Shown: positions 4,932-52,824, counted from the first letter of the stretch. The stretch: 64,000 bases of DNA from Methanotrichaceae archaeon (GCA_963754945.1 CAVWIG010000018.1:96001-160000); one strand, 5' to 3'. Program-made: numbers and translations. The notes: a model not told the origin generated them from the letters alone.

Positions 4932-5048
4932 TCTATAATTTTTTTTGTTATTTTATTTATCGCAATACCTTATTATAGTTCTGCTGCGCGACGCGCAGCA
5001 GCTCGTTTGGCGTTGTTTGATGAGAATCTACTCTGCTTTATAGCAGCA

Positions 5049-5122
5049 TGGGCCTGGCCGGATTTGAACCGGCGGCCACTCGGTTATGAGCCGAGCGCTC
5101 TACCGGACTAAGCTACAGGCCC
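5049..5122 (-). tRNA. tRNA with CAT anticodon, probably tRNA-Ile2(CAU)
   Basis: Cloverleaf GGGCCTG...CTCATAA...GGTTCAAATCC...CAGGCCCA; Ile2 versus Met identity is inferred from the acceptor stem. Confidence 0.9.
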
Positions 5123-5137
5123 AAAAGCGTGATAAGG

Positions 5138-5232
5138 CGCCGCCAACAGGGCTCGAACCTGTGACATTCTGGTAACTGCTTCCCTATCTAGGGTTTAACA
5201 GCCAGACACTCTACCAACTGAGTTATGGCGGC
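5138..5232 (-). tRNA. tRNA-Asn(GTT) with 22-nt intron at 37/38 (5174-5195)
   Basis: GCCGCCA acceptor stem, CTGTTA anticodon loop followed by insert AACCCTAGATAGGGAAGCAGTT, then ACCAGA and T-arm. Confidence 0.92.
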
Positions 5233-5283
5233 CCGAACCCATCCCTTAACACACAATGATTTAAGCCTTTTGATTAGATGCTC

Positions 5284-6330: not shown

Positions 6331-6362
6331 ACTAATATTCTAAACGAGTGGGGAATGCCTGA

Positions 6363-7175: not shown

Positions 7176-7276
7176 TCTTCTGAAGTGTCGTGAATTGAAG
7201 CCCCATGAGTTGGTGGTCTTTTTTAAGGCGTCAGGGCAAAGCCTTTAAGTGGAGACGGAGATTATTTGCGGGGTGC

Positions 7277-7350
7277 GCCTCGGTAGCTCAGCTGGCAAGA
7301 GCGATTGACTTGTAATCAATAGGTCGCGTGTTCGAATCACGCCCGGGGCT
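7277..7350 (+). tRNA. tRNA-Thr(TGT)
   Basis: GCCTCGG...ATTGACTTGTAATCAAT...GTTCGAATC...CCGGGGCT cloverleaf. Confidence 0.95.
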
Positions 7351-12360: not shown

Positions 12361-12512
12361 CTCGTTTTTCGGCCTAGGTCTCAGGTTCTATTAGTTGCAT
12401 AATTGTCTTGAGCTGAGCTTAGCAGACCATCTCGTCTTTAATGAATCCGTGTATCGAAGACGGATGCTTCACAATGAGATTAGGAACCTAATTTAAAAAG
12501 GATTAAGAGGAA

Positions 12513-12812
12513 TTAGAGCAGATCGAGGGCCTCCTTGCCTGACATCCCTACCTTTATTCCCAGACTTGCTGCGGCGTCGTTGGCATCTTTTATCACTCCG
12601 TCCAACAGGTCGTCTATCGTGGCAATGGAGCTGCCGCGATTTGGTTTGACCCTGGCGGCTGGATAGCCGAAGTTGTTCAGGGCGGTCACGTCAAAGGCCC
12701 CGCAGCCAACCATTCCCACGTCGGTAACCACATTGACCAGGTTGACCTTGCCTAGAGGGATGACGTACCCGTCGGCCTGTTTCCTGGCCAACTGTACTTT
12801 TGTGTGAATCAT
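12513..12812 (-). CDS. YunC/DUF1805 family protein
   Basis: GMVGCGAFDV...AARV...TIDDLL...GIKVGMSGKEAL; likely start ATG 12812. Confidence 0.85.
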   Translation of the reverse strand: MIHTKVQLARKQADGYVIPLGKVNLVNVVTDVGMVGCGAFDVTALNNFGYPAARVKPNRGSSIATIDDLLDGVIKDANDAAASLGIKVGMSGKEALDLL

Positions 12813-13019
12813 CTCAATAGCCTCTCTTAGTTTTTCTCCTCTTCGAGTCGCCACTGTTCCAGCTGCTTGATTTGTACAGTTCTGGCATAGAAAGATGATA
12901 AAGGCTCTGTTTCGGGCAACAACCGTTCTAACCAGCGATGAAGATGAATGGCTTAAATGCCAGCCTCTGCCGGGCTGCATCCTTATGACATTCCCCTCGC
13001 ACGGCCTGTTGCAGTGTCT

Positions 13020-13250
13020 CCAATCATTGAAATAGGTGTTTAGAATTGAGTTAGATAAGTACATCACACAGTTTCGGTCCTGGGGAGTGGTCCAGGCCGA
13101 AGACGTGACCAAGTTCAGCGTGGCCTCTTGAGAACTCTGCGCTAGAAAGATCTTCGTCCTCTGGCAATCAGTAGAACTCCGTCCTGAGAAGCCTAGGGGA
13201 GATCAAGGCCCTCCGATACGCCAGCCGAGGATAAAGTTAAGGCATCAACG
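13020..13250 (-). pseudogene. archaemetzincin (AmzA-like zinc protease) remnant, 5' half missing
   Basis: Across frameshifts and stops reads LNFILG...RLLRTEFY*LPEDEDL...RVLK...ELGHVFGLDH...NCVMYLSNSI. Confidence 0.75.
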
Positions 13251-13319
13251 ATTCTCATCCCCTCAAGACAAGTCATGAAGATTCTCTACAGATATTCATG
13301 TGCGGGGATGAGAATCGAT
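13248..13319. repeat. 14-bp perfect inverted repeat whose left arm overlaps a 17-bp copy of SRP RNA sequence
   Basis: CGATTCTCATCCCC ... GGGGATGAGAATCG; 13251-13267 is identical to 27560-27576. Confidence 0.85.
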
Positions 13320-13766
13320 ACATCTTTGACCCCATCCGTATGCTCTTGAATCTCCGGGAGTTTTCAGTTGATACACTATTATTTTACAACAAAAAGATAT
13401 TTATAATAGAAAACAATAGATATACTTGAAAGGGTTGAAACCCTTTCCGCGAGATGGGAACTGGGATGTAGCAAGGAGGAAAAGTTGGACCGTTTCGCAG
13501 GGCCTCGGTATTGGATTGGGCTGATACTGATCCAGGTACTCGGCCCTCGCTGCGGTTTAAATATGCTGCGCGTCGATAAATCAATTCCTAAGTTAATTAA
13601 CCTAATTAAAAACAAAAGATAGATATAGAAGTAGGTTATAACCTTAAATTGTCGGCGAGAAGTGGTCCTCCTTAAATCTTCTCACCCTCCTCCTAATTAT
13701 CAATGAGAGTTTCGAAAAACTAATCAATCGAAATACTTATATACTATTAATACTATAATATAATGC

Positions 13767-14828
13767 ATGAGGACTCTCATTGATTTTGCCATTCGAGCAG
13801 AATATGCTCGAGTAAAAGCCCTCGGAGATGATCTATCCGAGATCGGATCGTTGATCAATTGGGAGCGTTTCAGATTTTTGGAACCATTGATATACAAAAA
13901 TAAAACTAGCCGCGGAGGTCGTCCGAACATTGACATCGTGATTATGGTGAAAGCTCTCGTAATTCAGCATTGGTTTGGTCTAACAGATCCAGAACTGGAG
14001 CGACAGGTTGCGGATAGGATCTCTTTTCGTATTTTCCTTGGCACCACTGAAGTAATTCCTGATTTCAGCACAGTTTGGCTATTCCGTGAACGTTTGATTA
14101 AGTGCGACGTATACGATGATCTTTGGAATGAGCTTCAAAGGCAGCTCGATGAGATGGGGTTTACTGTAAAGAATGGCACTATCCAGGATGCAACCTTCAT
14201 AACTTCGGACCCAGGTCGGAAGAGGAACAAGAAAGACGAGCAAGGCGGGGACAAAAAGGAAGGTCAAGATTCCGAAGCCACCAGTACGAGCCTGAATCAG
14301 GAGTTTGATAAAGAGCTAATTGGTATTTCAAATAATATTATTGATGACAAGGCCAAACCACAGAGACTCGAAGAAGAGCCAATAAATGAGGGAAGTTGGG
14401 CAAAAAAGGGTGTCAAATCCTTTTTCGGATATAAAGGTCATATCTCAATCGATACCAATTACCACCTTATCAGATATTTTGAGACTACAACTGCTTCTGT
14501 ACACGATAGTCAGGTAGATCTTGGAATTGAAGGGCTACCACGTTACGCCGATAAGGGATATGATGGTGCAAAAACTCGAGGATATGATGCAGCCATGAAA
14601 AAAGCTACAAGAGGTCACAAGCTTGGAATCATAGATCTTCTGAGGAATAAGAGAATCAGTAAAACGCGATCGCACATCGAAAGATGCTTCGCTGTTATGA
14701 AGCGGGGGCATAAGGGAGCACATGTTTATGTAACAACTGTCGCAAGAGCTGGAGTAAAATTCATGATGAATTCGGTCGTTTACAACCTGGAACAGTTGAA
14801 ATATTTAGTGCATAAACAAACAGCCTAG
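13767..14828 (+). CDS. IS5-family transposase
   Basis: GGRP, PDFSTVWLFRE, IQDATFI, GYKGH, HDSQ, ADKGY, IERCF. Confidence 0.93.
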   Translation: MRTLIDFAIRAEYARVKALGDDLSEIGSLINWERFRFLEPLIYKNKTSRGGRPNIDIVIMVKALVIQHWFGLTDPELERQVADRISFRIFLGTTEVIPDFSTVWLFRERLIKCDVYDDLWNELQRQLDEMGFTVKNGTIQDATFITSDPGRKRNKKDEQGGDKKEGQDSEATSTSLNQEFDKELIGISNNIIDDKAKPQRLEEEPINEGSWAKKGVKSFFGYKGHISIDTNYHLIRYFETTTASVHDSQVDLGIEGLPRYADKGYDGAKTRGYDAAMKKATRGHKLGIIDLLRNKRISKTRSHIERCFAVMKRGHKGAHVYVTTVARAGVKFMMNSVVYNLEQLKYLVHKQTA

Positions 14829-14973
14829 CGGAAGCTCTCTAAAAAAGCGCAAAAATTAGAAACAACAAGGTAAATTGAAATCTAATAAGCCAATTTAGGG
14901 GTGAAATATGCTAAAAAACCACTATAAAGATTGAAAATATTAACGCAAGAATTTAAGGCTTCATTAACCAACA

Positions 14974-16062
14974 TAGGACTTACGCAGTTGAAGCATTCGA
15001 CAATGAATAAATAGGATATTTTATATACTCGCGAATTGCCTCACGAATAATTCTTCGCTTAGATTCGAACCAACTCATTCCCATTCTAAGCCTTTCTACT
15101 TCTAATCTGAGAAACGCTCTCAGGGAGAACATTATGTGTGCTCTCTGGGACTGACTTTTTCTTGCTTGACAGCTTTCGACTCCACAGAATTGCTTTATTC
15201 CCCTGTGATATTCCTCAATCTTCCAGGAATATCCACCAATTTTTTCGCGTTTAGCTTCGTCCATCTCCAGCACGTCAGTTGCCCAGTATCCTATGTCGCC
15301 GTCATTAGAGACTATCTTGAATACTTTTATAAAACCATAAGCTTTTAAATGCACATCCCTGCCTTGCAGCGGTATCTCTATCTCCTGGATTTGCATGTTT
15401 TTTGTGTTATCTGGATTCACCAGCCTATTTTTCTTCAATCGGGTCAGCCAGTGCCATCCAGACTTCCGTATGGTTTTGAGATTATCTACACTGGCGTACC
15501 AGCTATCGAAGAGAACAATACGGGGCTGAAAACTTCGTTCTTTTGCTTTGGCAAGCATATCCCGAAAATGATCATTTTTTGTCTTGCCGTCAACATCTAT
15601 ATCGTAGATTCGGAAATCAACGGGAATTATGGCGTTTCCATCTGTCCACAGCAACGTACAAATATTGATTCCATTCACCAGTCGATGCTGTTTTCCACTC
15701 CATTGATGATAAACTAGGCTCATATTTTTGGCATACGGCTTGTCCAACGTCGTATCGTCAATTACCAAGAAACCATTTTGAGGCTGAACAATATTCTTTA
15801 CTTCATTCCACAACGTATCCGTATCTGGAGGCTGTCTTTGTAGAAGACGGGTAAATGCATCATGCGATGAACTATTTTCTCCGACTGGCTGACACCTTGC
15901 GGCTTCGGTACAGGTAAAAACATCTACTGATGCTATCAGAAAGTGAATATAATCAAGATCATCGCACTTGGAAGGATTCAAGTTCAGCCCTATTCCATTT
16001 ATTTGTAGGTCTTAATATAGTCCATGCAATATAAGAAGATTCTGCCAAGTGCGTAAGTCCTA
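14974..16062 (-). mobile_element. IS701-family element (transposase 14980-15981)
   Basis: TIR TAGGACTTACGCA, TSD CCAACA; IDDTTLDKPY, FDSWY, WKIEEYHRGIKQ. Confidence 0.92.
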
Positions 16063-16372
16063 CCAACACTAAATCGAAACCCTCCAATGTTTATTCTGCT
16101 TCGAGATTCTCAATTGCTTTTGTTACGTCGTAGATGGATCGTTAGCAATTGCATCAGCTCTCTGAGCGCTTAAAGTATTGAGCGTATCGCATGATCTATC
16201 TACTCAGTACTCTGTTTGTGTAAGCAGTCGCTCCAAGTAACTCAGTCGATCTAGTTATGGGTAGCGCTAGCAATTTTGTTTGGGGGCTAGAAAAATTCTT
16301 ATATTACAAATATACTTAGATTAGTAAGCGAACTACGGTGTCGAGTGGACTATAATTTCCCGGTGAAAAGCA

Positions 16373-17038
16373 ATGGTAAATAAAAAGAAGATCAGATCTT
16401 TAACCCTATATATTTGCGCAATGCTAACCATAAATGTATTTCTCATCTCATCGATAAGCGCGATGGAATATTCGTTCTACAACGGAACTTATTTTTCGGT
16501 TGAATATCCTGTAACAGGGCAGGTTGAAGAAAACAACACTAGCTTAAATTTCTCTGATGAAAATACGGGTCATTATGTTTCCATCGAGACAGGGAAAAAC
16601 TATCCGACCATCGCTATACTAAATAATTATAGCACTTTTGTTAATGGATCACTTGATGAAATGACCATGCATTTCCTCGAGACGCTAAAATTTAAGTCGC
16701 AAGTAACAAGCCCCGGAACTGGCGGCAAAGAAAATACTAATAATACTCAAGTAATGAGCCCTTACCAAAAAGAAAATGCAAAAAGTTGGAATGACAGGGG
16801 CGTTGATCTCTATGCTCAAGGCAAGTACGATGAGGCATTAAAATGCTATGATAAAGCCATTGAGCTCGATCCACAATTTTCACCGGCCTGGAACAATAAA
16901 GACGCAGCTCTTTTTGCCTTAAATCAGAGGATAAAAATGCATGGCATAGCGAAGGCTTCGCTCTCAAGACGCTCGGTTACACGGTTCAGTCCTATCCACA
17001 ACTCTTTTCATGAATTGCCCTATATTGCTATAGGCTAG
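16373..17038 (+). CDS. exported TPR-containing protein, probably C-terminally truncated
   Basis: Signal/TM segment; AKSWNDRG...YDKAIELDP TPR; second TPR breaks off. Confidence 0.7.
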   Translation: MVNKKKIRSLTLYICAMLTINVFLISSISAMEYSFYNGTYFSVEYPVTGQVEENNTSLNFSDENTGHYVSIETGKNYPTIAILNNYSTFVNGSLDEMTMHFLETLKFKSQVTSPGTGGKENTNNTQVMSPYQKENAKSWNDRGVDLYAQGKYDEALKCYDKAIELDPQFSPAWNNKDAALFALNQRIKMHGIAKASLSRRSVTRFSPIHNSFHELPYIAIG

Positions 17039-17493
17039 TGAGATGAAGGCAAGGTCATTGTGAGCTTACTGGTAATCTCTGGAATGGTACTATGAGTAGG
17101 CAACCTCGTATCGTTGGGATCATCGGATTATTCCAGATATTCTCTAAGTTGCTATATCTCATCCAGGTATCATTCAAGTTGCTTTAGCTCTTCCGCGGTG
17201 AAGCAATCATCTATGCTCTCCCTATTGTATTCCTGTTGTCACTCTTCCTCGGTGAAACCGCATTGTTCTACTCGTGCCTTATCCATATCCGCCGCTATCT
17301 TAGGGTCATAACCAAAAATCAATTCTTCATAAGGCAGTTGTAATTGTAATGCCTTCTCTCTCCCTGTAACATACCAATAGAGTTTCAATTGACCATATCT
17401 GAAATGATCAAAAAGGGAATAAGCTCCGTAGAGCTTAATTGAACAAGGATGGAGTCTACGCCATGCTTCTAAACCAGCCAGGGAGACTAGCAA
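16923..17493 (-). pseudogene. decayed gene of unknown function
   Basis: Frame continues through several stops with internal repeats FTEEE / FTAEEL and QLE*YL / QLREYL. Confidence 0.35.
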
Positions 17494-17762
17494 AAAGCCT
17501 TGATTTCACAAATGCAAACTTAGCATCTTCTTTAAGTACTTAAAGATATGAATTATCATTGGAGGATAATTGAGGCGGATTCTTGCTCCGTTGATAGTTC
17601 TGCTCATGGCGCAGCGGGAGTAAGGGGGCATCCTATGAAGCCTAACGATGGTTTCTGCCCGATCCGTACGGGATACATGTAGACTATATCTGCTAAAGTA
17701 TTAATTTGATACTTACGGATCTGATACGAAAACATTGGTTTGTCAAACAAAGGAGGAAATCT

Positions 17763-18443
17763 ATGAAAAACAAAATAATTGTATTGAGCGACATCCACAT
17801 CGGTGACAATTCGCCGACTTGTTGGTATCAAAAAAGCGTTCATGAACAGTATTTGCTGACAATTCTCGATTGGGTTGTGACAAATGCCGCGAATGTGAGC
17901 GAACTCATCTTGGCAGGTGATGTTGTTGATACCTGGACCTATCCGTTCAATGTTCAACCGCCTAGTTTCGCAACGATCGCCTCGAAAAACCCTAACGTTT
18001 TCGGGCTGCAAGGAGGGCTGGCAAGCGTTCTCGATGCTCTAGGCGGAGCCGTGACGTACATCCCTGGAAATCACGACATGTTAGTAACCGAAGCTGATGT
18101 TGCCTCAGTCACGAGCCCAGGCGGACATCATCTCCGGTTCTCCAGAAAAAATTACAATCCGGGGGGCGATTCGCGCATACTTGTGATGCATGGCAACGAT
18201 TTCACGATGTTCAACGCTCCCGATTTGACTACCAAGTGGGCCCCATTACCTGTCGGACACTTTGTGACCCGGATTGTTGCCACGTATTGGCAATCTCACT
18301 TGCCACCCGGCAAAAATGTATCGGAAATCAGAGATCAAGGTTATCCCAATGGCGTAAACTTGCTGTCGATCATCGAAAATGTACTGAAGAATGTAAATGT
18401 ATCGTACTTGCTCAATATTACGTTGAATTCCCCAATCGAGTGA
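17763..18443 (+). pseudogene. calcineurin-like metallophosphoesterase, probably truncated at ~18398 by IS66
   Basis: SDIH, AGDVVD, GNHD, MHG motifs; last metal motif absent. Confidence 0.75.
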
Positions 18444-19130
18444 GTGCATGGACCAAAAATTATTAATACATATATCTAAAATATTTTGTTTGTGCCAGAT
18501 ATTATACACGAGGCCATAATCAACCTCGATGTAGACAAGATCAACTTCGACGATAAAGAAGCGATGAAAGAATTGATCCTCCAGCTTCTAAGCACAATAG
18601 AGCAATTAGCCCAGTCAAATCAAGAACTCCGCAAAGACAATCAACAGCTAAAGGATGAAATAAACCGGCTGAAAGGTGAGAAAGGCCGTCCTAAAATACT
18701 GCCGGACAATCCTGAATACCAGGCTAATGTGCCGAAGGAAAAACCCAAAAAATGGCATAAAGATAGCAAGAAACCAAAGATAAAAATCGACAGGACAGAA
18801 TACATTAAAATTGATAAATCGATTCTTCCACATGATGCCAAGCATAACGGCTATAGACGGGTCATAAAGCAGAACATAAAATTTGAAACCGACAACGTGG
18901 AATATTGGTTGGAACGCTACTATTCGCCGTCCCTGAAAAAGACCTATGAAGCAGAACTTGCCGAGTCCCTTAAGAACACGGAATTTGGAAGTCATCTGAA
19001 AGCATTCATCGCTTACCTCTACTATGCTGGAAGGGTTACTGAGAATAGGATCCACAAGATCCTAGAAGAGATCGGCATAATAATCTCGGAAGGCGAGATC
19101 TCAAACATACTGACCAAGGAAAAGAGCAAT
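18399..19130 (+). mobile_element. IS66-like transposase 5' fragment cut by IS5
   Basis: Coiled-coil LKDEINRLKGEKGRP, FG..LKAFI, ISEGEISNIL; GTA-starting left end is tentative. Confidence 0.65.
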
Positions 19131-20415
19131 GAGAGTTTCGAAAAACTAATCAATCGAAATACTTATATACTATTAATACTATAATATAATGCATGAGGAC
19201 TCTCATTGATTTTGCCATTCGAGCAGAATATGCTCGAGTAAAAGCCCTCGGAGATGATCTATCCGAGATCGGATCGTTGATCAATTGGGAGCGTTTCAGA
19301 TTTTTGGAACCATTGATATACAAAAATAAAACTAGCCGCGGAGGTCGTCCGAACATTGACATCGTGATTATGGTGAAAGCTCTCGTAATTCAGCATTGGT
19401 TTGGTCTAACAGATCCAGAACTGGAGCGACAGGTTGCGGATAGGATCTCTTTTCGTATTTTCCTTGGCACCACTGAAGTAATTCCTGATTTCAGCACAGT
19501 TTGGCTATTCCGTGAACGTTTGATTAAGTGCGACGTATACGATGATCTTTGGAATGAGCTTCAAAGGCAGCTCGATGAGATGGGGTTTACTGTAAAGAAT
19601 GGCACTATCCAGGATGCAACCTTCATAACTTCGGACCCAGGTCGGAAGAGGAACAAGAAAGACGAGCAAGGCGGGGACAAAAAGGAAGGTCAAGATTCCG
19701 AAGCCACCAGTACGAGCCTGAATCAGGAGTTTGATAAAGAGCTAATTGGTATTTCAAATAATATTATTGATGACAAGGCCAAACCACAGAGACTCGAAGA
19801 AGAGCCAATAAATGAGGGAAGTTGGGCAAAAAAGGGTGTCAAATCCTTTTTCGGATATAAAGGTCATATCTCAATCGATACCAATTACCACCTTATCAGA
19901 TATTTTGAGACTACAACTGCTTCTGTACACGATAGTCAGGTAGATCTTGGAATTGAAGGGCTACCACGTTACGCCGATAAGGGATATGATGGTGCAAAAA
20001 CTCGAGGATATGATGCAGCCATGAAAAAAGCTACAAGAGGTCACAAGCTTGGAATCATAGATCTTCTGAGGAATAAGAGAATCAGTAAAACGCGATCGCA
20101 CATCGAAAGATGCTTCGCTGTTATGAAGCGGGGGCATAAGGGAGCACATGTTTATGTAACAACTGTCGCAAGAGCTGGAGTAAAATTCATGATGAATTCG
20201 GTCGTTTACAACCTGGAACAGTTGAAATATTTAGTGCATAAACAAACAGCCTAGCGGAAGCTCTCTAAAAAAGCGCAAAAATTAGAAACAACAAGGTAAA
20301 TTGAAATCTAATAAGCCAATTTAGGGGTGAAATATGCTAAAAAACCACTATAAAGATTGAAAATATTAACGCAAGAATTTAAGGCTTCATTAACCAACAC
20401 TAAATCGAAACCCTC
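19131..20415 (+). mobile_element. IS5-family element copy 2 (transposase 19193-20254)
   Basis: Same sequence as copy 1; flanks CAAT versus ATTA do not match. Confidence 0.93.
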
Positions 20416-22200
20416 ATTATTATACGTGGTTTTAACGTTTTGAGCGGTTGGCTTCTCCAGCTCGTAAACAACCAAACTATCCGGTTTCCCAGCCAAGTCC
20501 CCATTAGCATCCCAGATTTTCTTTATGTATGGACCTGCCTTGCGTAATCTCGCGTTCTCAAGCTTCTTGAAAGGCTCCTTAATAGCTGGCTTTGGCAATT
20601 CTTCTTCGCACATAACGCCGTAGCCATAGGCGCCCTGTCTAATGATGCGTCTACCCGGTCCCCAAGTTAAAACTCTGTCTATATCTTCTGCCTTCACACC
20701 GATACAGTAGACCTCAGACGGCGCAAGTCCTTTAGGATCTTTGGCCCGTGACCATGCCTGCCACGTCGCCGCATCTACTGAACCTACCCGTATAGTCTGA
20801 CTCTCGATATCCGAATCCGCGAGGCAATCATAAGCATTCTTAGGAACTTCTGCTAGTCCAACTGCAATTATGGTCCTGCGGTCACTCTCTACGCCCATCG
20901 TGTTTGCTGATCTATAATAATCCCAAAAAAGGTTAGGGTATCCTTTGGATAGCGCCTTTTGCAATCTAGCATGTAGTTCCATATTGGGTGCCAACACATG
21001 TATAGGCGCGTTTCCCTTCGCTTCTGATAAATCTTTAATGCGTTCTATGATATCTGGGATTTTAGCATGTTTTTGGTTAGTGGTGCCACTTAACCGGCTG
21101 GAGTCTGCGTAGATTGTCATTTGGCTATTTGTATTGCAAATGTCCGGGAATATAGCCTGCTCTAGTGGCCAATCCACGCCAAGAAATTTACCCCTACCGG
21201 CTATAGACTTGAAGAAGCCGGAGTAAGGCTCAAACAAGGTTCCCGAAACAAAGATTACCGAAGCTTTTTTGGCATAATTCTTTAGATAATCCCTGACAGC
21301 ACCATTCATGCGGCCCAAAGCCCCACATACATAAATCTGACCCGAACCGTCATGACTGATATACGATAACCGGGCAGTATCGTGGCCCAGGATTTCTATG
21401 ATATCGCGTAATTGTAAAACTTCCTCTTCAGTTACATTGAACTCATCATGCTTCTTGGCCAGTTTCCTGAGTTCACCCCAGATCTTGCGCTGCTCGTCCT
21501 CGGTAAGCGTCCACGGGACTTTTAGCTCTCTAACTAGCCAATTGTTTGGGTCATACTCGACCTGTCTCCAAAGATCCTCGACGTCGTACTCTGCAGAATC
21601 GCGTAGTTCTGTCCATTTCTTTAACGCTTTCAGAAGTAAGGGATAATCCTCTCGTATTTTGAGAGCCAAATCCTGTAGGTGGGCTGTGTGCGGAATTTTG
21701 GCAACATCGCTAGTGACAAGGGTATGCGCCTCGTCGAACAATACAACATCGATGTCTTTTAAGATCTCACGAAGGGACTGCGCTCTTTCACTGTCGGAAA
21801 TCATAATGGCTTTTAGTTTCGCAGCAGTCAGCGATTTCATCGATGCGTATGGTTCGCGTTCGATATCGAGTATGCAGCAGTCCTCGGCATATTTGCAGGC
21901 GTCACACTCTCTCGGTATCGACATAGGTAATTGTTCAAGTAATGGCTCTTTGGCAATTTCGTCCTGATTGTATTGACATGCCACGTTTCCATAGATACCG
22001 ACAATGTCCTCATCGGCCTCTTTCATCGTATCGCTGATGATGTTTTTCGTTGGTGATACCAATAGCACTCGTTTATTGGATCTGCCAGCAGCGATGACGA
22101 AACTCGTCGTAAAGCCTGCTCGCGTAACTTTATGGATAGCGTAATCCTTACCGTCAAGGAAGGAAGCTGCAAGAGAAACCCTGCTTTCATCTATTTTCAT
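20416..22200 (-). pseudogene. SF2-type helicase-like replication protein, 3'-truncated by IS5
   Basis: TRAGFTTS (Walker A-like), VSPT, Cys cluster C..CxxC..CC, LFDEAH, SGTL, QAWSR; ORF runs into the IS end. Confidence 0.7.
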
Positions 22201-22390
22201 GCAGCAGCCCTCCAACTAGTTTTTATCAACCAAAAACTATAAATACTATACGAATTACGTATTAGATTAAATTGATTAGAATTAACTGTCATAACTTTAC
22301 CTTTTTTGAACGGCGCTGCGAACGTTCAATTTCTATTTTCTATTGAGCGTTTTGCTTTGGCTGTTTACTGCTTTTTTGTCAATATTTGTC

Positions 22391-22573
22391 TCAATTACTG
22401 CCACTCTCATGTACATCTATCGGCTTGACGGTGAGACACTCCCCATCAAATGTGAATTCAATTCGATCAAATTCTTTCCATGCATTCGCAACGGGCCGTG
22501 GTATGCTGATCAGTGCTGCCTTGTTGTCAACAGATTTCGTGAGTCTGCGCTTAAAGGTTAAATTCATCGTCAT
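22391..22573 (-). CDS. AbrB/MazE/SpoVT-like DNA-binding protein
   Basis: RRLTKS...LISIPRPV...DRIEFTFDGECLTVKP. Confidence 0.7.
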   Translation of the reverse strand: MTMNLTFKRRLTKSVDNKAALISIPRPVANAWKEFDRIEFTFDGECLTVKPIDVHESGSN

Positions 22574-22671
22574 GTTTATTTTCAACACTCCGTTTTAAAA
22601 TAGGCCATAAAAAATTTTTTTAACTCCTTAAAGCGGTTCTACTATTTATACTTTTTGGTAACAATCAGCAT

Positions 22672-22908
22672 CTACTGCTTTACCAAGATATCTTTCTGAT
22701 CATGAGTTTCCCAGATCTCCAAGACCCTAAGCTTAGAGATGAGAATCATTCTCCCGTCCAGCTTCTGAATGTTTAAGAAGTCCTTAGATATCGATAGCAA
22801 GCGACCACACAACGGAAATCTATCGTTACTCTCTGTTACGATGCCGACAACCTTCCCGATAAAAGGGCTAAATTCATCTTTCAAATCTAACTGATTCTTC
22901 ACTATCAT
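22672..22908 (-). CDS. small Sm/LSm/Hfq-fold-like protein
   Basis: FIGKVVGIV...LCGRLLSISKDFLNI..LDGR.ILISK..V..I pattern. Confidence 0.5.
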   Translation of the reverse strand: MIVKNQLDLKDEFSPFIGKVVGIVTESNDRFPLCGRLLSISKDFLNIQKLDGRMILISKLRVLEIWETHDQKDILVKQ

Positions 22909-22931
22909 ATTTCAATTTCACTCCAATTCTA

Positions 22932-23120
22932 TCAGACGATCCCATGAACCCGTTCGTATTCCCTATTGTATTCAACGAACAGGTCGAACTCGGGACTCTG
23001 CATCCATGCCAGTTTCCGCTTCATGAATTCCTGATGCAGTTGACGCTCTTCTTCACTCTCAAATGGATCCCAATCTGACCGTAAGCTTTTTATACTTTTA
23101 CTTGAATTACTAAGTTGCAT
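22932..23120 (-). CDS. hypothetical protein (62 aa)
   Basis: GGTGA RBS; in the co-directional cassette. Confidence 0.55.
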   Translation of the reverse strand: MQLSNSSKSIKSLRSDWDPFESEEERQLHQEFMKRKLAWMQSPEFDLFVEYNREYERVHGIV

Positions 23121-23188
23121 ATTTTTATCACCTTTTTGGATCAGTGCTACCAACACTGAATCCTTTTAACCTTTATTCAGCATTCTCC

Positions 23189-23305
23189 TGCTGTGTTGCA
23201 TAACTCAGAACCACGATGTCGATTGCTATCGATTTTGCTCATTTACCTATCATTACTGATATGCTCCGATGCATATCGATTTTAGCAAATTTATGCAACA
23301 CAGCA
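23189..23305. mobile_element. MITE family A (117 bp)
   Basis: TIR TGCTGTGTTGCATAA / TTATGCAACACAGCA, 8-bp TSD CATTCTCC. Confidence 0.9.
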
Positions 23306-23535
23306 CATTCTCCTAATCCCAATTTGTTTATCTTGTCGCGTCTATCTTGTTCTACCTTTACACCGATATGGACGCATTTCCAAATCATGCCTGAAATTGT
23401 CATTCCTAAGTTGTTAGCCATTTGCTTCAATTGTTTCTTCTCATTCGGAGTCACCCTAAGAGCGATAATATCAGTCATTTTGTCTGAGTCTACCGATTTT
23501 TGTCTTTTTGTCTGCCTAACCATGATTCTCACCAA
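23239..23535 (-). CDS. ribbon-helix-helix (CopG/MobC-like) protein, C-terminus extended by MITE
   Basis: IIALRVTPNEKKQLKQMANNLGMTISGMI. Confidence 0.75.
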   Translation of the reverse strand: MVRIMVRQTKRQKSVDSDKMTDIIALRVTPNEKKQLKQMANNLGMTISGMIWKCVHIGVKVEQDRRDKINKLGLGECAVLHKFAKIDMHRSISVMIGK

Positions 23536-23582
23536 CGTTATAACGACGTAAAATAGTGAAGACGATAAAAAAGATCTGGGAG

Positions 23583-24062
23583 TTAATATTTTGCCAAGAT
23601 CTTCTTCGCTTCTCTGACCCGGCTTTCAAGGTCCGAAATGATTGGACCTTTTTCGTTTTTAACCCGGTCTCGCTTATCTAAGGCGCTTTGAACTTCTGGC
23701 AGTCCCTCCGCTTCATGAGTGGACATGGCCGCATTCGTTCGAATCGCACGTTCCAAGGAATGACGAGCATCCAGCTCTGCATCAGAGAGGATCCGGCGAG
23801 CTCTCGATAGCTTGTCCAGAAGGCCGCTCAGTGTAGGTTCTCCATCAGTGAGCTTTAGGAATGCCTCGTGGTCTTTCTTAACGTCAGCTAAATGCTTATC
23901 AGCAGCTTCCACATTAGATATCGCGTCTACTGCCCCATCCCCAACGAACTCGGCACCCCATCCGCTGGCCGTCTTCTTAGGTCGAATGTATACGAGAAGA
24001 GCTGCCTGCTTGCTCGATAGATCTGCCTGTGCCGCTTCATAGGCTTCCTCGATACCACTCAT
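23583..24062 (-). CDS. helical hypothetical protein
   Basis: 159 aa; ATGA overlap with upstream gene. Confidence 0.7.
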   Translation of the reverse strand: MSGIEEAYEAAQADLSSKQAALLVYIRPKKTASGWGAEFVGDGAVDAISNVEAADKHLADVKKDHEAFLKLTDGEPTLSGLLDKLSRARRILSDAELDARHSLERAIRTNAAMSTHEAEGLPEVQSALDKRDRVKNEKGPIISDLESRVREAKKILAKY

Positions 24063-24766
24063 AACTGCTCCTGCTCGCGTTGAGCTTTCGAAAGGGCATC
24101 CCGCTTCCTATTCAGGGTCTGACGTAGACGGGATTTTGCTGCTTCAAGGTCATCATCGCCTTCCTCGGTCGTCTGACCGAATGCTCCCACAACAGGCGTT
24201 CGAGTATCTTGATCTACACCGCCTACACGATCAGGCGTGTTCCGCTTCTTCGCAAGCGTGTCCGCTAATCTTACCTTTGCGGTAGCCAGTGAAGTAGCCA
24301 GTTCCCCTTCTGCCTCTTCTCGATTGCCAGGTACGACATTAGATTTTGTCGAAAGTGTTCTGTGTAGCTGTGCCCTCAATTCGTCGTGCGTCTGGTTAAA
24401 TTTCATAGCAGGTCTCGGATTGATGATTTCGGGATGCTCGTCCAAATAAGTGAATCCCACATCTCTGAATGCCTCATAATGCTGTCTGGCCCTCTCGGGA
24501 CTGCGATTAGCCTGGTTTAGGATCATGAGAAAGTCATCATAATCCGGATTGAATTGGGTGTTGCGCGGTGATTCTATCTCTGGAGTTCCCTTGAGCGTTG
24601 CCGCTAGCTCTGCTTTTGCCTTCTCGACACCGGGACCTCTGGAATTGGACTTTATGAACCGTTGGCGTGCTGCCTCTAGCTCGTCGGAAACGAGCACGTC
24701 GTCTGGTTTGCCGGATAGTGTCTCCTTCAAGATGCTTTTGGCTCTAAAATAGCGATAATCTTTCAT
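24059..24766 (-). CDS. hypothetical protein with repeated amphipathic helices
   Basis: GGTGA RBS; repeated A(K/R)xxLxxTL motif. Confidence 0.7.
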   Translation of the reverse strand: MKDYRYFRAKSILKETLSGKPDDVLVSDELEAARQRFIKSNSRGPGVEKAKAELAATLKGTPEIESPRNTQFNPDYDDFLMILNQANRSPERARQHYEAFRDVGFTYLDEHPEIINPRPAMKFNQTHDELRAQLHRTLSTKSNVVPGNREEAEGELATSLATAKVRLADTLAKKRNTPDRVGGVDQDTRTPVVGAFGQTTEEGDDDLEAAKSRLRQTLNRKRDALSKAQREQEQL

Positions 24767-24969
24767 TTTATGTCACCTATAACGGACAAACTATCAGTGT
24801 ATTGTGAACATCATCATAAACCATTTCAACATGGGTGTAACCACTATCGGCCCAAATATTGAAAATCGGCTTCGGAATGCTGAACAATCCATAGCAGCCC
24901 GAGCTTAAAATTTTTCTAAAGAACCTCATCAAACTATAGAATCCGTAAAAAAGACAAAAAAAGGAAGGG

Positions 24970-25563
24970 TCATGCTTTAGCCCCTTCCGGTTGTGTCTGC
25001 TCTACGATTGTGTTGTTAGAACCTCGAGCATTCAAGGTTGCTTGCCTCTGTGTGAGAGCCGATTTGTGGGCCTCTAAAGTTCTGATAAGGTCGTCGATCT
25101 TGGCGATGACCGAAGTGATATCCTCGTTGGGTATTCCATCGGCAGTGATTGCAGACTTTATGTTGTCCTTCGCTTTGTCGAAATTGTCCTTGGATGCTCT
25201 GGTTGTCGTCTTGGGCTTCGGTGGAATGATCTGATTGACAATCTGTCGGACTTCCTTGTAGGTCACTGCAATCTTCGGTTGCTCGTCCATCTCCTTTTGC
25301 TCTGCCTTCTCGATGATCAGATCGAGTGCCTTATCTAGATCAGCATCATTCTTTAGGGCGTGTAGTGGACGAGCTGCATTTTCACTAAGGATCTCTCCGA
25401 TCGGACGAGAACTGTCCTTTAATATTTCACTTTGTGCTACTTTTGCCGATATATTGTTCATCAAAGGTATGTGCTTCAGAATTCTCTTTACCGTTTCTGG
25501 GTTTTTCTTACAGAAACCGTTGTTCTCAGCCATTGCTCGATAGAATTGCTCGCAGCGTACCAT
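24970..25563 (-). CDS. hypothetical protein, possibly HTH/ParB-like
   Basis: LSENAARPL...VTYKEVRQIV, C-terminal coiled coil. Confidence 0.65.
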   Translation of the reverse strand: MVRCEQFYRAMAENNGFCKKNPETVKRILKHIPLMNNISAKVAQSEILKDSSRPIGEILSENAARPLHALKNDADLDKALDLIIEKAEQKEMDEQPKIAVTYKEVRQIVNQIIPPKPKTTTRASKDNFDKAKDNIKSAITADGIPNEDITSVIAKIDDLIRTLEAHKSALTQRQATLNARGSNNTIVEQTQPEGAKA

Positions 25564-26034
25564 CTAAACGACCCCCGCTGCTGTTGGTTTCGGTAACAAA
25601 ACCGAAACTCTCATATACTTATGCGTACTCGCGCTTGTATTCAACATTTTGGACATACCGTCCACCGTCCTTTCGGGTTTTTTTACTCGGGACTTACCAG
25701 AGAATCGAGCCAAAACCCGAAGCGGGCGGCTGCATGCAGTGATACTATATATAGTCTTCTATCGGGCTCGCCCGATATTGTTATTTTTGCAAATATCACA
25801 ATTTCACAAAATTTATAAAATTTGCTGTCGCCATTTATCTGCCGCGTGCATATGATCCCATCACAATCAATAGCAGCTTCGATGCGGCACCTACACCAGT
25901 TTGATGCCGTCAGTACTCCGCTGGGAGCAAGATTGTCGTTGCACTTCTGTCCCGCTCAGTAATTACCCAGATCTTGATACCGCTAGTGCCCCTGGTGTCG
26001 CTAAAATATGACTAAGTGGGAATTTAGGCATCCA

Positions 26035-26205
26035 TTAAGCCTTTTTGCTCTGTGTAACTGTATCCTCTGCACTTCTCTTTTCAGCTTCATGAATCAGCGC
26101 GAGTCGGGCCAGGTTGACATCTCTTAGGCTGTTAAGAACGCTCAAAGCTAGGTCAATCTCAGCGACATCCTCGGTGATGGCTTTTTTGAAATCTACAGTG
26201 ACCAT
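26035..26205 (-). CDS. small coiled-coil protein (56 aa, not in ORF track)
   Basis: MVTVDFKKAITEDVAEIDLALSVLNSLRDVNLARLALIHEAEKRSAEDTVTQSKKA. Confidence 0.55.
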   Translation of the reverse strand: MVTVDFKKAITEDVAEIDLALSVLNSLRDVNLARLALIHEAEKRSAEDTVTQSKKA

Positions 26206-26216
26206 GAAGATCATTC

Positions 26217-26339
26217 CTACTTGGCCTCTACCAACAACTGCTCCAACTCGCCTACGGCAGCATCCCGGATTTCCTGAAGGACTCCTAGGATCTCGTTTAT
26301 CTGTTCGATCCGGTTTTCCAGTTCTGACTTAGTGGGCAT
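26217..26339 (-). CDS. small coiled-coil protein (40 aa, not in ORF track)
   Basis: MPTKSELENRIEQINEILGVLQEIRDAAVGELEQLLVEAK; TATA-like TTTATAAG at ~26399-26406. Confidence 0.55.
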   Translation of the reverse strand: MPTKSELENRIEQINEILGVLQEIRDAAVGELEQLLVEAK

Positions 26340-26490
26340 GAACAATCATCTCGCTTCAAATTTTATCCTATTTAGTTAATAGTAATATTAAGTGTGAACT
26401 TATAAACTTATGGTTGCTTGTATTATGCGATATACGCTACTCTATGTCTAGAATTACAGGTATTATACAGTTTAATGGGTATATCTATCT

Positions 26491-27360
26491 TCAAACGTCC
26501 AGGTACTTACTCTGTTTTTCACGAAGCGTCGCGATATCTATGTGCAGGTATCTCGCAGTGGTCCTTATACTGGAATGCCTCATCAACTGCTGCAAAGAAT
26601 AGATATCGCAACCGTGCTTAACCATAATTGAAGCCGGACTATGCCTTCCCCAGACATGTACGCTTCCTCGCGACTTTACTCCAGCGGCTTTCTTACATTT
26701 ATTAAACATCGTCTCGATCCCCCTCAGCTTCCACTTGTGGAACTGATCGGTATAAAATAATGGGAATCGCCCGTCAATCTCGATCCTAGGTCGAATCTGA
26801 AGATATTGCTCTATGATCTGTATGCAAGCTGGTGGAATAGGCAATATCGCAGACTTGCCGAACTTACCATCCCGGATTCGCAAGGTCATAGTCTTAAGAT
26901 CTAAATCATCATCTTCTAAATTCATTAAATCGCCAGCTCTTAGCATGCAATAGAACATTATACTTAACATTGTGTAGTATTTTAAGTTTGTTGTCGCGTT
27001 CAAGATCGCCAAAACCTCTAATTCGCTGAAGAAATAAGGAACCTTGTTGCTTACCTTCATGTAGGGTAATGTCAGCTCTAAACCCCTTGATTTATAAAAG
27101 GCTTTTAATGCTGCGCCCCAGATATTTACAGTGCTCCTAGCCAACTTTGACTCGGCTAGATCACCATGCCATTTCTTAGCATCCTCAATCGTTGGGTTTG
27201 GGCTTCCCGTTTCCTTCAAGAACCGCTTTACTGGATGTAGATATGTCTCTACGCATGCTTGCCGGTAACCATGCTCATTCAGCCAACGCTCGAACCTCCT
27301 TAGAGCAGGATTAACATCCATAGAAATTTGCCGATTCCAGTCCACCTTGATCTTATCCAT
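26491..27360 (-). CDS. tyrosine recombinase/integrase (XerD-like)
   Basis: R (MLRAGD), K (GKFGK), HxxxRH (HVWGRH), H (MRHSS), Y (TARYLH). Confidence 0.93.
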   Translation of the reverse strand: MDKIKVDWNRQISMDVNPALRRFERWLNEHGYRQACVETYLHPVKRFLKETGSPNPTIEDAKKWHGDLAESKLARSTVNIWGAALKAFYKSRGLELTLPYMKVSNKVPYFFSELEVLAILNATTNLKYYTMLSIMFYCMLRAGDLMNLEDDDLDLKTMTLRIRDGKFGKSAILPIPPACIQIIEQYLQIRPRIEIDGRFPLFYTDQFHKWKLRGIETMFNKCKKAAGVKSRGSVHVWGRHSPASIMVKHGCDIYSLQQLMRHSSIRTTARYLHIDIATLREKQSKYLDV

Positions 27361-27506
27361 TTCAAGCACCGGTCCCGCGCGACGTAATACGCTTACCCGC
27401 TGTTCTCGGTGAAGACATTCAAAACAAAATCAATATATTCGAGGATAGATCCTGGTTTCCTGTTGCCTTGCCACGCGACAATTATGGAGCCACATAACGA
27501 TTAAAT

Positions 27507-27820
27507 GGCGGGCTTGCCAACGGTTGCCAGCAGCGCCACAGGTCAGTTTATCCAGGAGCATTCTCATCCCCTCAAGCCTGTAAGCGACAGTTACCCGCAG
27601 TGGGTCTGCTCCCTTCCGGGCCTGAACCGGTGCCTGCAATTATGGAGCCCAAACCTGCCCTCCGGCAGGCTCAAACGCCGGTGCTATCCCTACAGGACGG
27701 AGAATCATGGTCAACATCTGGACTGACAAGCGACGCCTAAAGTCGTCCGCCAGCTTCTAGCCCCCCGCTTGTCGACGATTTCGGGTTGCAGGTGACGCCG
27801 AACCACCCGGACTGCCCGCC
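27507..27820 (-). ncRNA. ffs: signal recognition particle (7S) RNA
   Basis: Helix 8 GGTTCAGGCCCGGAAGGGAGCAG, helix 6 CCTGCCGGAGGGCAGG, complementary ends GGCGGGC/GCCCGCC, 314 nt. Confidence 0.93.
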
Positions 27821-27878
27821 ACTTTTAATAAAGAGTTCGATAGCAATAAAGCTAACGCAAAAAGTGGAGAGGAATTTT

Positions 27879-28130
27879 ATGGAAGATACCGACCAGAACG
27901 TAGGGTTCATCATGGGGAGCAACCAACGCCAAAGGGTGCTCCAGGTTCTCGGCGCCAAAGGGGCGCTCAGCGCTGATAAGATTGCCAAGATCGATCACAC
28001 ACCCGTACCTGGGGTAAGGAAGACCCTGGAGGAGCTGGCAGCAAGAAATGTCGTCGCCGAGAAGGAAGGAGTCTGGAGCCTGACCGATCTGGGCATTGAG
28101 TTAGAGAAAGAGATGAAGAAGAGGGGCTGA
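27879..28130 (+). CDS. winged-helix DNA-binding protein
   Basis: GSNQRQRVL...IAK...VRKTLEEL...WSLTDLG. Confidence 0.8.
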   Translation: MEDTDQNVGFIMGSNQRQRVLQVLGAKGALSADKIAKIDHTPVPGVRKTLEELAARNVVAEKEGVWSLTDLGIELEKEMKKRG

Positions 28131-28134
28131 CCGG

Positions 28135-28662
28135 ATGAAAGTGATGGAGGCCATCGCAGAGCGTCGATCCATCCGGAGCTTCTCGAGCCAGCCTGTCGAG
28201 GATGAGAAGCTCTTACGGGTTCTGGAGGCAGGACGCCTGGCCCCCTCGGCGAGGAACATGCAGGACTGGAAGTTCGTGGTTGTAAAAGACCCAGGCCTAC
28301 GCCAGAGGCTGGCTGAGGCAGCCAGGAACCAGGAGTTCGTCAGCCAGGCGCCCGTTGTGATCGTGGCTTGTGGCACCTCGGACTACGTCATGACCTGCGG
28401 CCAGCTCACCTATCCCATCGACGTGGCCATCGCCGTGGACCATATGACCCTGGCAGCAGTGGAAGAGGGCCTGGGAACCTGCTGGATTGGAGCCTTCTAC
28501 GAGGATAAGGCGAAAGAGATTCTGGGAGTACCCAAGACTATCAGGGTGGTCGCTCTGCTGCCCCTGGGCTATCCAGCTGCAGAGCCTGCAAAGACCGCCA
28601 AGGCTATTCTCAAACCACGTAAACCCCTGGAAGAGATAGTAGTTTACGATGGATGGAAGTAA
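28135..28662 (+). CDS. nitroreductase family protein
   Basis: RRSIRSF, APSARN.QDW, GLGTCWIG, LPLGYPA. Confidence 0.93.
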   Translation: MKVMEAIAERRSIRSFSSQPVEDEKLLRVLEAGRLAPSARNMQDWKFVVVKDPGLRQRLAEAARNQEFVSQAPVVIVACGTSDYVMTCGQLTYPIDVAIAVDHMTLAAVEEGLGTCWIGAFYEDKAKEILGVPKTIRVVALLPLGYPAAEPAKTAKAILKPRKPLEEIVVYDGWK

Positions 28663-28699
28663 ATAAAACTGAAAAGAAGCCGTGTGAAGATAACAAGGA

Positions 28700-29666
28700 T
28701 TAAGCGCCGAGAAGGTGCTCTAGTTTCTCGACGCACCTCCAGGTAAGAATGAGCTGGGCCACTCCGATGGCGTTGACGTACTCTTCACGTCTGTCGCTTA
28801 TGGCGGCGTAAGTCCCTAAAGTCCTGCCTAACTTGTGTTCCAGATGATCGATCATTGACTGATGAATCTCACCATCGATGGTCATTACTCCCACCTTTTT
28901 GGCGTAGTAATCATCGCGCTCGAACTCCAGGGAGAACTCGTGCTCCGAGGAGAGGAGGATCTTGGAAAGGTCGATGGTCATGTCCACCTCCGGAACCGGC
29001 CGATCAAGCATCTGCTGGATGAGCCGGACAGAATACCATTCGGGCTTGGGCTGTTTGGTCTCCAATATCGAAGGGTGAAACCTCGACTCCTGAATCTTGA
29101 CCACGATCTCTGCATAGATCTTCTGGATGTCCACGTACAGCTTGTAGTCAGGCTCTCTCTGAAGGATCTCACGCATGACATCCTCAGGACGATAACCCCT
29201 TTCGCCCACGTCACGCCGCACCTTCCACAGTCTTTTCACAGTTCGAGAAGGGTCCACGAAGATCTTGATGTCAGTAAGATGGCGCAGCCTTTCGGTATAG
29301 AAGGGATGCAATCCCTCAACAATGACCACCGGAGCCGGGCCGAAGGGGACTGTCCCATGGATCTGACCTGTATTGTGGTCGTAGACCGGCTTATCGATTC
29401 CCTCGCCTTGACGAAGAGCCTCTAAGTGGTCTGCCAGAAGGTCGAGGTGGTTGGCAGCCGGATTCAGGGGGGTTATGCCCATACTCCTTGCGCTGCTGTC
29501 GATCAAGGCTATGATAGTCATCCATGGAGAAAGAGATGACGTTCTCTTCCCCCAGTATCCTCTTTATGCCGCTAGACAGAGTGGTCTTTCCCGAGCCGCT
29601 ATCCCCCGCAACAGCGAAGACGAAAACCCTGCCTGAATCGATGATCCTCTCGGTCAGAGACTGCAT
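28700..29666 (-). pseudogene. prk: phosphoribulokinase with +1 frameshift near 29480
   Basis: AGDSGSGKTT and MDDYHSLDR in one frame; GITPLNPAAN, KPVYDH, EGLHP, WK.RRD.ERG in the next frame. Confidence 0.85.
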
Positions 29667-36146: not shown

Positions 36147-36171
36147 TGAATCACGCCTTCATTAGACTGAC

Positions 36172-52815: not shown

Positions 52816-52824
52816 CAGATAAGA

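Follow-up and report, generated by a model that had tools for sequence, protein, structure and literature searches.

The question raised by this locus is what kind of mobile DNA borders the gene for the signal recognition particle (SRP) RNA, and how it came to lie there. The locus is part of the window, by which we mean the whole stretch of 64,000 nucleotides (nt) that was analysed (Methanotrichaceae archaeon, GCA_963754945.1, CAVWIG010000018.1:96001-160000); the assembly, here called G000, comprises 2.97 Mb in 54 contigs and is 87.7% complete. In the window an AT-rich island adjoins the SRP RNA gene, with a gene for a tyrosine integrase at the joint. An earlier account of the window, made without comparison to other genomes and referred to here as the sequence-only reading, had described positions 13251-27576 as one integrative element of 14.3 kb, bounded by a 17-bp core and inserted in the SRP RNA gene as its chromosomal attachment site (attB). 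Based on comparison with related genomes and metagenome contigs, we consider it very probable that the SRP RNA gene serves as the chromosomal attachment site for integrative elements that carry this integrase. The island itself turned out to be built differently from what had been proposed.

The SRP (7S) RNA gene in the window is the sole SRP gene that was found in the assembly with Rfam. Archaea_SRP (RF01857) matched positions 27506-27821 on the minus strand, over model positions 1-317, with 180.7 bits against a cut-off of 96.5, and the gene is complete. The 17-mer ATTCTCATCCCCTCAAG has two exact plus-strand copies in the window, one at 13251-13267 and one inside the SRP gene at 27560-27576. 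No third copy was found in the window with up to two mismatches allowed, and 0 of 100 shuffles reached two matches; a search of the whole 2.97 Mb with up to one mismatch gave two forward and no reverse copies. From the coordinates of the gene it follows that the 17-mer corresponds to RNA positions 246-262 and lies 54 nt short of the 3' end. The RNA-sense 3' edge of the internal copy coincides with a boundary, 262/263, that recurs in the SRP fragments discussed below. Several observations of the sequence-only reading were confirmed at this point, namely the exact same-orientation repeat, which has only these two copies in the genome, the intact tyrosine integrase about 150 bp from the SRP 3' end (136 nt from its GTG start, 145 nt from an in-frame ATG), the position of the left 17-mer near the switch to AT-rich DNA (G+C content 0.39-0.48 over 13-27 kb versus 0.51-0.57 on either side), and the absence of a bordering tRNA gene, the closest ones lying at 5048-7350, about 6 kb left of the island.

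The integrase gene occupies 26491-27369 on the minus strand and encodes an intact protein of 292 amino acids (aa). Phage_integrase (PF00589) matched residues 117-278 with an E-value of 6e-24 and 85.1 bits (cut-off 27.1), and the protein aligned end to end with the solved XerA structures 5hxy and 4a8e, the former with an E-value of 2.3e-28 over residues 17-288. The catalytic residues of tyrosine recombinases are an Arg, a His-x-x-Arg, a His and a Tyr. The corresponding motifs read lRaGDL, vHvwgRHspA, mrHSs and aRYlH in the integrase and vRvGEL, pHvl-RHtfA, lgHaS and qiYtH in 5hxy, and these columns were invariant in three clade members. Archaeal XerA (NF040815) was the nearest family, with 146.6 bits, which is below the equivalog cut-off of 220. 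A XerA chromosome-dimer resolvase is expected as a single conserved copy per genome in host DNA, whereas G000 has seven integrase matches, some of them broken, and the gene studied here lies in AT-rich DNA. In elements with SSV1-type tyrosine recombinases of archaea the element's attachment site (attP) is part of the integrase gene, so that integration splits this gene; here, unlike in that type, the integrase open reading frame (ORF) is whole and the SRP-derived attachment (att) segment lies outside it, at a distance of at least 136 nt. In the pNOB8 and SNJ2 types of archaeal integrases the gene stays intact on integration. The integrase described here resembles those types, as commonly described, in being whole when integrated and in flanking the att site, with XerA as the nearest family in the sole family test. 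A 59-aa ORF (26035-26214, minus strand) travels with the integrase. Its homologues, 74-77% identical, lie directly after the integrase in four contigs (L135, L136, L137 and L143), and no family match was obtained for it in profile searches. The integrase and the 59-aa ORF form a conserved recombination module.

We searched 105 genomes of the family and 392 genomes of the class, all of them metagenome-assembled. Among the 105 family genomes the only further intact integrases with at least 60% identity were those of G074 (78%), G059 (77%) and G093 (60%), and all three start 81-158 nt past the 3' end of an SRP gene, in the same orientation. A check that the sequence-only reading had suggested, whether close integrase homologues adjoin SRP genes, thus gave a positive answer in every case. 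All remaining full-length matches in these genomes had at most 47% identity and were located elsewhere. Integrase fragments were found 100-500 nt from the SRP 3' end in G109, G107, G011 and G019, and 1.5 kb away in G079. Intact clade members occurred in 4 of the 392 class genomes, all within one family.

A maximum-likelihood tree was built from 30 integrases, one best match for each of 30 genomes, and the four SRP-linked integrases formed a single branch in it with a support of 100/99. Among the other 26, none follows an SRP gene and 11 immediately follow a complete gene for tRNA-Leu, -Gly, -Arg or -Pro; Rfam gave nothing meaningful for 16 integrase loci without a tRNA. The sister branch of the SRP-linked clade (support 100/100) consists of L105, L108 and L111, from G042, G018 and G110, with no upstream tRNA or Rfam match.

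Additionally, metagenome contigs were scanned for the integrase, and 21 loci had one of at least 55% identity, 18 of which could be judged (at least 169 nt upstream). In all 18 the integrase is immediately preceded by an SRP gene or by a 3' piece of one; the three other loci have at most 76 nt upstream of the integrase and are not judgeable. Four further metagenome matches, at 22-23% identity, had no SRP sequence. One metagenome SRP gene is 96% identical to that of the window, yet the identity of its integrase is only 76%, a difference that suggests turnover at the site. A scan of genome contigs with the single integrase gave only an 84%-identical fragment, at a contig start.

Copies of the SRP 3' part in direct orientation were detected downstream of the gene in G074, G107 and G098; the direct repeats of relatives measure 52-133 nt. 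In G074 a copy of SRP positions 224-319 lies 3.7 kb downstream and is exact for 58 nt from position 224 and divergent after that, as would fit if one 3' end were element-derived and the other host-derived. G107 has three copies, which start at about positions 224, 189 and 266 and lie at 7.3, 10.8 and 11.8 kb; we read this arrangement as a tandem array. In G098 there are two copies, which cover 188-320 and 262-286. The order distal arm, SRP 221-316, proximal arm and integrase was seen in eight metagenome contigs, and where their upstream sequence suffices the distal arms are similar to one another and to the arms of G074 and G107. The att segment of the clade is about 96 nt long (SRP 221/224-316) and lies between conserved distal and proximal arms, and the copied SRP segment has at least three different 5' limits, at about 189, 224 and 263. 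In the window the spacer between the SRP gene and the integrase (27370-27505, minus strand) is the integrase-proximal arm (P'). It is 70-76% identical over 93-134 nt to the spacers of G074, L136 and L137, and the same identity was found to relic arms on contig C28 of G000 and contig C40 of G001.

Across the SRP fragments the boundary 262/263 recurs in seven places. The left relic in the window ends at SRP position 262, and in both G000 and G001 an SRP tail that stands beside the gene Nre starts at position 263. Copy 2 of G098 starts at 262, copy 3 of G107 at 263-266 and both SRP copies of the metagenome locus L134 at 257-263, and the exact identity of the G107 gene with its first copy stops near 261. 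As this boundary recurs, we infer that strand exchange takes place near SRP positions 257-263. In L134 (positions 1-2330), which is a very small unit, the first SRP piece stands right after the stop codon of a G+C-rich coding sequence and is followed by a 78%-identical integrase, with the second SRP piece 1.1 kb further; this locus may be an integration or a rearrangement at a non-SRP site.

To see the surroundings of the gene in the family, 19 SRP loci from 19 related genomes were compared. A helix-turn-helix (HTH) gene was found on the 5' side in 19 of 19 loci, usually accompanied by another HTH gene and by genes for a nitroreductase and a PRK-family kinase. On the other side of the SRP gene, Nre, radical SAM, HrcA-like, amino-acid kinase and adenylate kinase genes lie within 1-3 kb of its 3' end in six genomes, which belong to five genera. 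In five of these six (G008, G009, G010, G014 and G022, from four genera) Nre comes within 1.1-2 kb after the SRP gene and the gap gave no integrase match; we regard these SRP-Nre loci as empty sites. The sequence-only reading had suggested looking in relatives for an empty site with amzA/yunC next to the SRP RNA; those found here have Nre next to it. For 5 of the 19 loci the assembly ends within the SRP gene or at most 250 nt past its 3' end.

The use of the SRP RNA gene as attB, as put forward in the sequence-only reading, agrees with the linkage in 3 of 3 genomes and 18 of 18 judgeable contigs, with the long repeats and with the empty sites. We propose that the AT-rich island represents the remains of one or more elements that would have entered the 3' part of the SRP RNA gene site-specifically, in a reaction presumably catalysed by the XerA-like tyrosine integrase encoded at their SRP-proximal end. 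Such an element would bring its own SRP 3' segment, of about 96 nt in the standard form of the clade. Recombination inside this segment would leave a complete SRP gene, the last ~54 nt of which would be element-derived, and the old SRP 3' end would be displaced to the far side of the element; repeated integrations would give tandem arrays. By analogy with the pairs of left and right attachment sites (attL and attR) of the relatives, the SRP tail of the window (positions 263-316; 27506-27559, minus strand) would have been supplied by an element at integration. In this genome the element appears to have decayed and become fixed, having taken up three insertion sequence (IS) copies and unrelated genes in its distal half. 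The standard distal arm would have been lost, and a 17-nt SRP relic that ends at 262 now abuts a metzincin pseudogene at what seems to be a rearrangement joint. The anatomy, the linkage of integrase and SRP gene, the repeats and empty sites of relatives and the relocation of the old tail are shown by the sequences, whereas the crossover position, the direction of transfer and the origin of this left joint are our reading of them.

The left end of the island differs from the right end in several ways. Nucleotide homology to the sister species G002 stops exactly at 13250, and the distal 17-mer (13251-13267, plus strand) stands as an isolated relic of SRP 246-262 at this synteny breakpoint; the SRP identity is confined to positions 246-262 on both sides. 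The sequence that follows (13268-13352) is not the distal arm of the clade and had no match among the sequences compared. The 17-mer region and an inverted copy form the arms of a hairpin at 13249-13317 (inverted repeat I13), with 17 nt, 94% complementarity and a distance of 35 nt; the DNA fold gave -19.6 kcal/mol (z -4.8). At six att copies of relatives the inverted partner was found in none. To the left of the joint lies host DNA, with a frame-shifted, 5'-truncated archaemetzincin-like remnant (12928-13250, minus strand) and then a DUF1805 (YunC-like) gene (12513-12920, minus strand; PF08827, E-value 2.3e-24), which is 97% identical in G001. In an outgroup genus the YunC gene has a different neighbourhood. 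The identity of the remnant rests on a HAELGHVFGLDH stretch and on its counterpart in G002, which is 80% identical and matches Peptidase_M54 at positions 113-166 with 40.5 bits. Pfam gave nothing for the three archaemetzincin pieces and the G002 ORF, and a six-frame Peptidase_M54 search of the genome gave no match at 12928-13250; the Peptidase_M54 model stops short of the N-terminal part even in intact paralogues. The sequence-only reading had an archaemetzincin gene cut off at 13251. The position of the cut agrees with the end of the G002 homology at 13250, but what is cut there is a frame-shifted remnant and not an intact gene.

Other SRP 3' relics and the partner of the left flank were found on further contigs of G000. 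On C28, positions 135734-135787 correspond to SRP 263-316 and stand directly before Nre; they represent an older, divergent tail, with 48 of 54 nt identical to the tail in the window, and ahead of this older tail C28:133065-133200 contains the last 12 nt of another SRP copy together with a relic proximal arm. G001 has the same arrangement of tail and Nre, preceded by a longer SRP pseudo-copy in which 147-235 is joined to 289-316. C27 carries an SRP relic of about positions 232-316, and C9 carries the conserved distal arm and SRP 222-242, joined to host DNA. In G002 the left flank continues with a winged HTH gene, a 310-aa gene, purC and a thermosome gene; in G000 this type of continuation sits on C24, joined to other host DNA, and the situation in G001 is similar. 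With the tail on C28 and the partner of the left flank on C24, a local deletion does not account for the missing tail, and the SRP gene and its ancestral neighbour Nre have become separated. The left 17-mer is, on the evidence of these alignments, a relic at a chromosomal rearrangement joint, and the break at this joint coincides exactly with the inferred crossover position. The joint would fit one made by an integrase with a secondary site; no reciprocal product of it was found.

Three candidates at these contigs were rejected. The distal arm on C9 is not this element's end, as its joint is common to G001 and G002, which makes it an old relic. The C28 tail and the C24 joints were considered as reciprocal products of the left joint and discarded, since G001 shares the C28 joint; at the C24 joint the arrangement in G001 is similar and not identical. 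A microhomology, TTCTCAT, which C24 near its break shares with the 17-mer, was dropped because the joints misfit a crossover inside it. Beside Nre, G002 (L094, C157) has a gene for a DinB-type polymerase about 90 nt away with no SRP piece between. The DinB ORF of G001 (L035 7652-8689, C40) matches the family model only from profile position 50, and on C40 this ORF is followed by the SRP pseudo-copy and element relics and then by Nre.

The remaining genes of the island were assigned as follows. The backbone of the element consists of genes for proteins of 197, 235, 159, 98, 74 and 78 aa at 22672-25563 (minus strand), of which the 98-aa product is NikA/MobA-like (NikA-like match with an E-value of 1.5e-6). 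Paralogues in the same order were found in G000 on contig C15 (C15:24896-27771), behind an integrase with 37% identity to that of the window. The C15 set also lies behind a 64-nt copy of the 3' part of tRNA-Leu(CAA) (C15:23493-23556), with the intact tRNA gene 11.6 kb away, and the paralogous set indicates that the backbone is a modular small element with two integrases and two targets in one genome. C15:11819-31000 is a second AT-rich island, adjoining tRNA-Leu(CAA), with broken integrase pieces besides the intact 37%-identical integrase; no third copy of tRNA-Leu(CAA) was found within the first 60 kb of C15. Next to the backbone lies a helicase-like ORF of 635 aa (20308-22215, minus strand; weak DEAD/ResIII and helicase matches), the 3' end of which continues into an IS copy, its final 35 aa being similar to IS ends in many parts of the genome. 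The IS copies at 19127-20399 (copy 2) and 13701-14973 (copy 1), both on the plus strand, are identical over 1273 bp and carry a DDE transposase of 353 aa (Pfam DUF772 and DDE_Tnp_1 for copy 2), which as a query gave 68 tblastn hit segments in the genome. A second IS at 14974-16062 (minus strand) has a DDE transposase of 333 aa, identified with Pfam, and 17-nt terminal inverted repeats (I14); tblastn with this transposase returned 23 hit segments from the genome.

Between the IS copies, 16373-19184 (plus strand) contains cargo or accreted genes, recognised with Pfam and tblastn, for a TPR protein, a metallophosphoesterase and a multi-copy 232-aa ORF. With the latter (18486-19184) as query, tblastn returned 13 hit segments from the genome, and those further copies that were listed are about 93% identical; the ORF has a weak IS66-type match. 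IS copies and unrelated cargo make up about half of the island, which thus comprises an element of about 5-7 kb, three IS copies and the cargo. The island of G001, which belongs to the same genus, has only the integrase and about 750 nt behind it in common with that of the window and is different after that. Near the left end, window positions 13353-13575 contain a conserved stretch of about 160-220 nt with an upstream TATA-like box and an internal GGGTTGAAACCC hairpin. It recurs in G000 at C17:221438-221668 (83%), in G001 on C106 (85%) and in G002 on C109 (78%). Rfam gave nothing meaningful on 13200-13720, and the stretch may be an undescribed small RNA gene.

We compared positions 12500-29500 with the contigs of four public sequencing runs, X1, X2 and X3 (DNA) and X15 (RNA), whose cover was thin. 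A contig from the RNA library spans 27506-27571 with a single difference, and the sequence that precedes 27506 in it is adapter, which agrees with an RNA that ends at 27506 and in which the present tail is joined to the core. The depth over the SRP gene was very high in the RNA run, to which SRP RNAs of other organisms contribute. Predicted folding of the SRP RNA gave -138.8 kcal/mol with the present tail and -131.3 kcal/mol with the relic tail from C28, and in G074 and G107 the differences were at most 3.2 kcal/mol; these folding results are suggestive only. Recombination between the two 17-mers would remove positions 263-316 of the only SRP gene, so that excision should be harmful.

These data allow other explanations of the locus to be weighed. 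The sequence-only reading had a single intact element of 14.3 kb with two functional 17-bp att cores, which would still be excisable and whose missing SRP tail was ascribed to a later, small local deletion. The exact direct 17-mers, unique in the genome and placed at both ends of the AT-rich stretch, and the intact integrase speak in its favour. However, att in the clade measures about 96 nt and has a conserved distal arm, which the window lacks, 13701-16062 and 19127-20399 are IS copies, one of which cuts the helicase-like ORF, and about half of the interval is IS or cargo. The postulated deletion does not hold either, as tail relics are present elsewhere, one of them beside Nre on C28, and the partner of the left flank is on C24, which is rearrangement and not local deletion; excision at the 17-mers, moreover, would delete SRP 263-316. 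We regard this explanation as very unlikely. Another possibility is that the distal 17-mer is unrelated to att and belongs to a 69-bp hairpin element, the border having arisen from an IS-mediated or random rearrangement. The 17-mer is indeed one arm of a strong hairpin, 13268-13352 matches nothing else that was compared, IS copies are 430 nt away, and an estimated ~0.1 chance matches of a 17-mer are expected between a 3 Mb genome and a 316-nt gene. Against this, the sole extra copy in the genome stands in direct orientation at the exact synteny breakpoint of an island that starts at the SRP gene, and its end at position 262 coincides with a boundary found again in six other SRP fragments; a hairpin element unrelated to att is unlikely in our judgement.

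The integrase could also be a host Xer-type recombinase that was vertically kept beside the SRP gene, with the SRP 3' copies as ordinary duplications. The best family is archaeal XerA and the best solved relatives are XerA proteins, but the score of 146.6 bits falls short of the XerA cut-off of 220, and the genome contains seven matches, some broken. The integrase is absent from the five genomes with an intact SRP-Nre order and is intact in only 4 of 392 class genomes; its paralogues follow tRNA genes and are accompanied by tRNA 3' copies, and the G+C content of the region is foreign. A vertically kept host recombinase is, on these grounds, hardly credible.

Integration of elements into the SRP RNA gene, which we prefer to the alternatives, also has observations that weigh against it. 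The contigs of the four runs contained neither a junction of an excised circle nor a joint between the 17-mers, and no independent contig bridging 13250/13251 is listed among them. Taken alone, the window has a distal repeat of only 17 nt, without the conserved distal arm or a host tail, and thus lacks a standard attL/attR pair. The 13250/13251 joint comes from a metagenome-assembled genome of 54 contigs, and the relations among C18, C28, C24, C9 and C27 are not given by the assembly. The metagenome contigs with the order arm, SRP piece and integrase may be inner joints of tandem arrays and not free attP, and a viral contig collection contained no relative of the integrase clade. Finally, the genomes with SRP-linked integrases are kin, from one family and two genera, and the counts of linked loci are for that reason not independent events.

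Elsewhere in the window, the 97-nt tRNA at 5136-5232 was given no name by ARAGORN (four-base 'anticodon' gtta) and scored 60 bits with Rfam; it probably has an intron. Positions 35000-45000 and 51000-64000 have a G+C content of 0.37-0.49, resembling the island studied here, and may be other foreign regions.

Islands and proviruses that are integrated by tyrosine integrases in the 3' parts of tRNA and transfer-messenger RNA (tmRNA) genes represent textbook integration logic. The SRP-linked elements follow it in that the integrase adjoins the 3' end of a stable RNA gene, an element copy of the 3' segment keeps the gene whole and, in relatives, the displaced segment is repeated directly at the opposite end and elements stand in tandem arrays; sister integrases in the same genomes do follow tRNA genes. 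Unlike in those islands, the target is the 316-nt SRP RNA, and the copied segment measures 52-133 nt with at least three 5' limits. SRP RNA genes serve as targets in bacteria: Enterococcus faecalis phage phiEf11 integrates in ffs, which encodes the 4.5S SRP RNA, with a 27-nt core (PMC12540744), and islands of Vibrio cholerae are integrated at ffs (bioRxiv 10.1101/2024.07.25.605194). Both resemble the present case in that an element with an integrase attaches at the SRP RNA gene, and differ from it in that their hosts are bacteria with a short 4.5S RNA, whereas here an archaeon, a 7S RNA and a XerA-like integrase are involved. The sequence-only reading knew of no such target in archaea, and in the literature searched we found no archaeal SRP RNA gene as an integration target, although papers beyond that search could describe one; papers that came up name SRP or 7S RNA only among annotated genes; for bacteria the ffs cases had already been described. 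The integration logic is thus known and the target has so far been reported only in bacteria, and a distinct archaeal integrase branch is found at it here.

A wider reading, which we put forward tentatively and regard as less likely than not to be right, is that a dedicated clade of archaeal integrases would have turned the SRP gene of Methanotrichaceae into a recombination hotspot, in which the last 54-128 nt of an essential RNA are serially replaced by copies from mobile elements, and that the same integrases would have rejoined the chromosome via secondary sites. The relics that end or start at 262/263 (the left joint, the tail beside Nre and L134) may be traces of this. Cossu and colleagues reportedly described integrase-driven chromosome rearrangements in Thermococcales in 2017. 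Our locus resembles that case in having att-like relics at synteny breakpoints far from the primary site, and differs from it in that a link between integrase and rearrangement is here only suggested by the position of the breakpoints. If the SRP gene is such a hotspot, the SRP 3' domain evolves partly as mobile DNA, and att relics record integrase-driven rearrangement.

The well-separated SRP-linked branch and its relatives in the same genomes that use tRNA genes are a natural pair for studying how an integrase changes its target, and a site-specific integrase with a defined att segment of 96 nt could serve as a genetic tool. Island finders that are restricted to tRNA and tmRNA genes will miss SRP-targeting elements. 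Methanotrichaceae are major acetoclastic methanogens, and integration as proposed here would mean that in these methanogens part of an essential, highly expressed RNA is element-derived.

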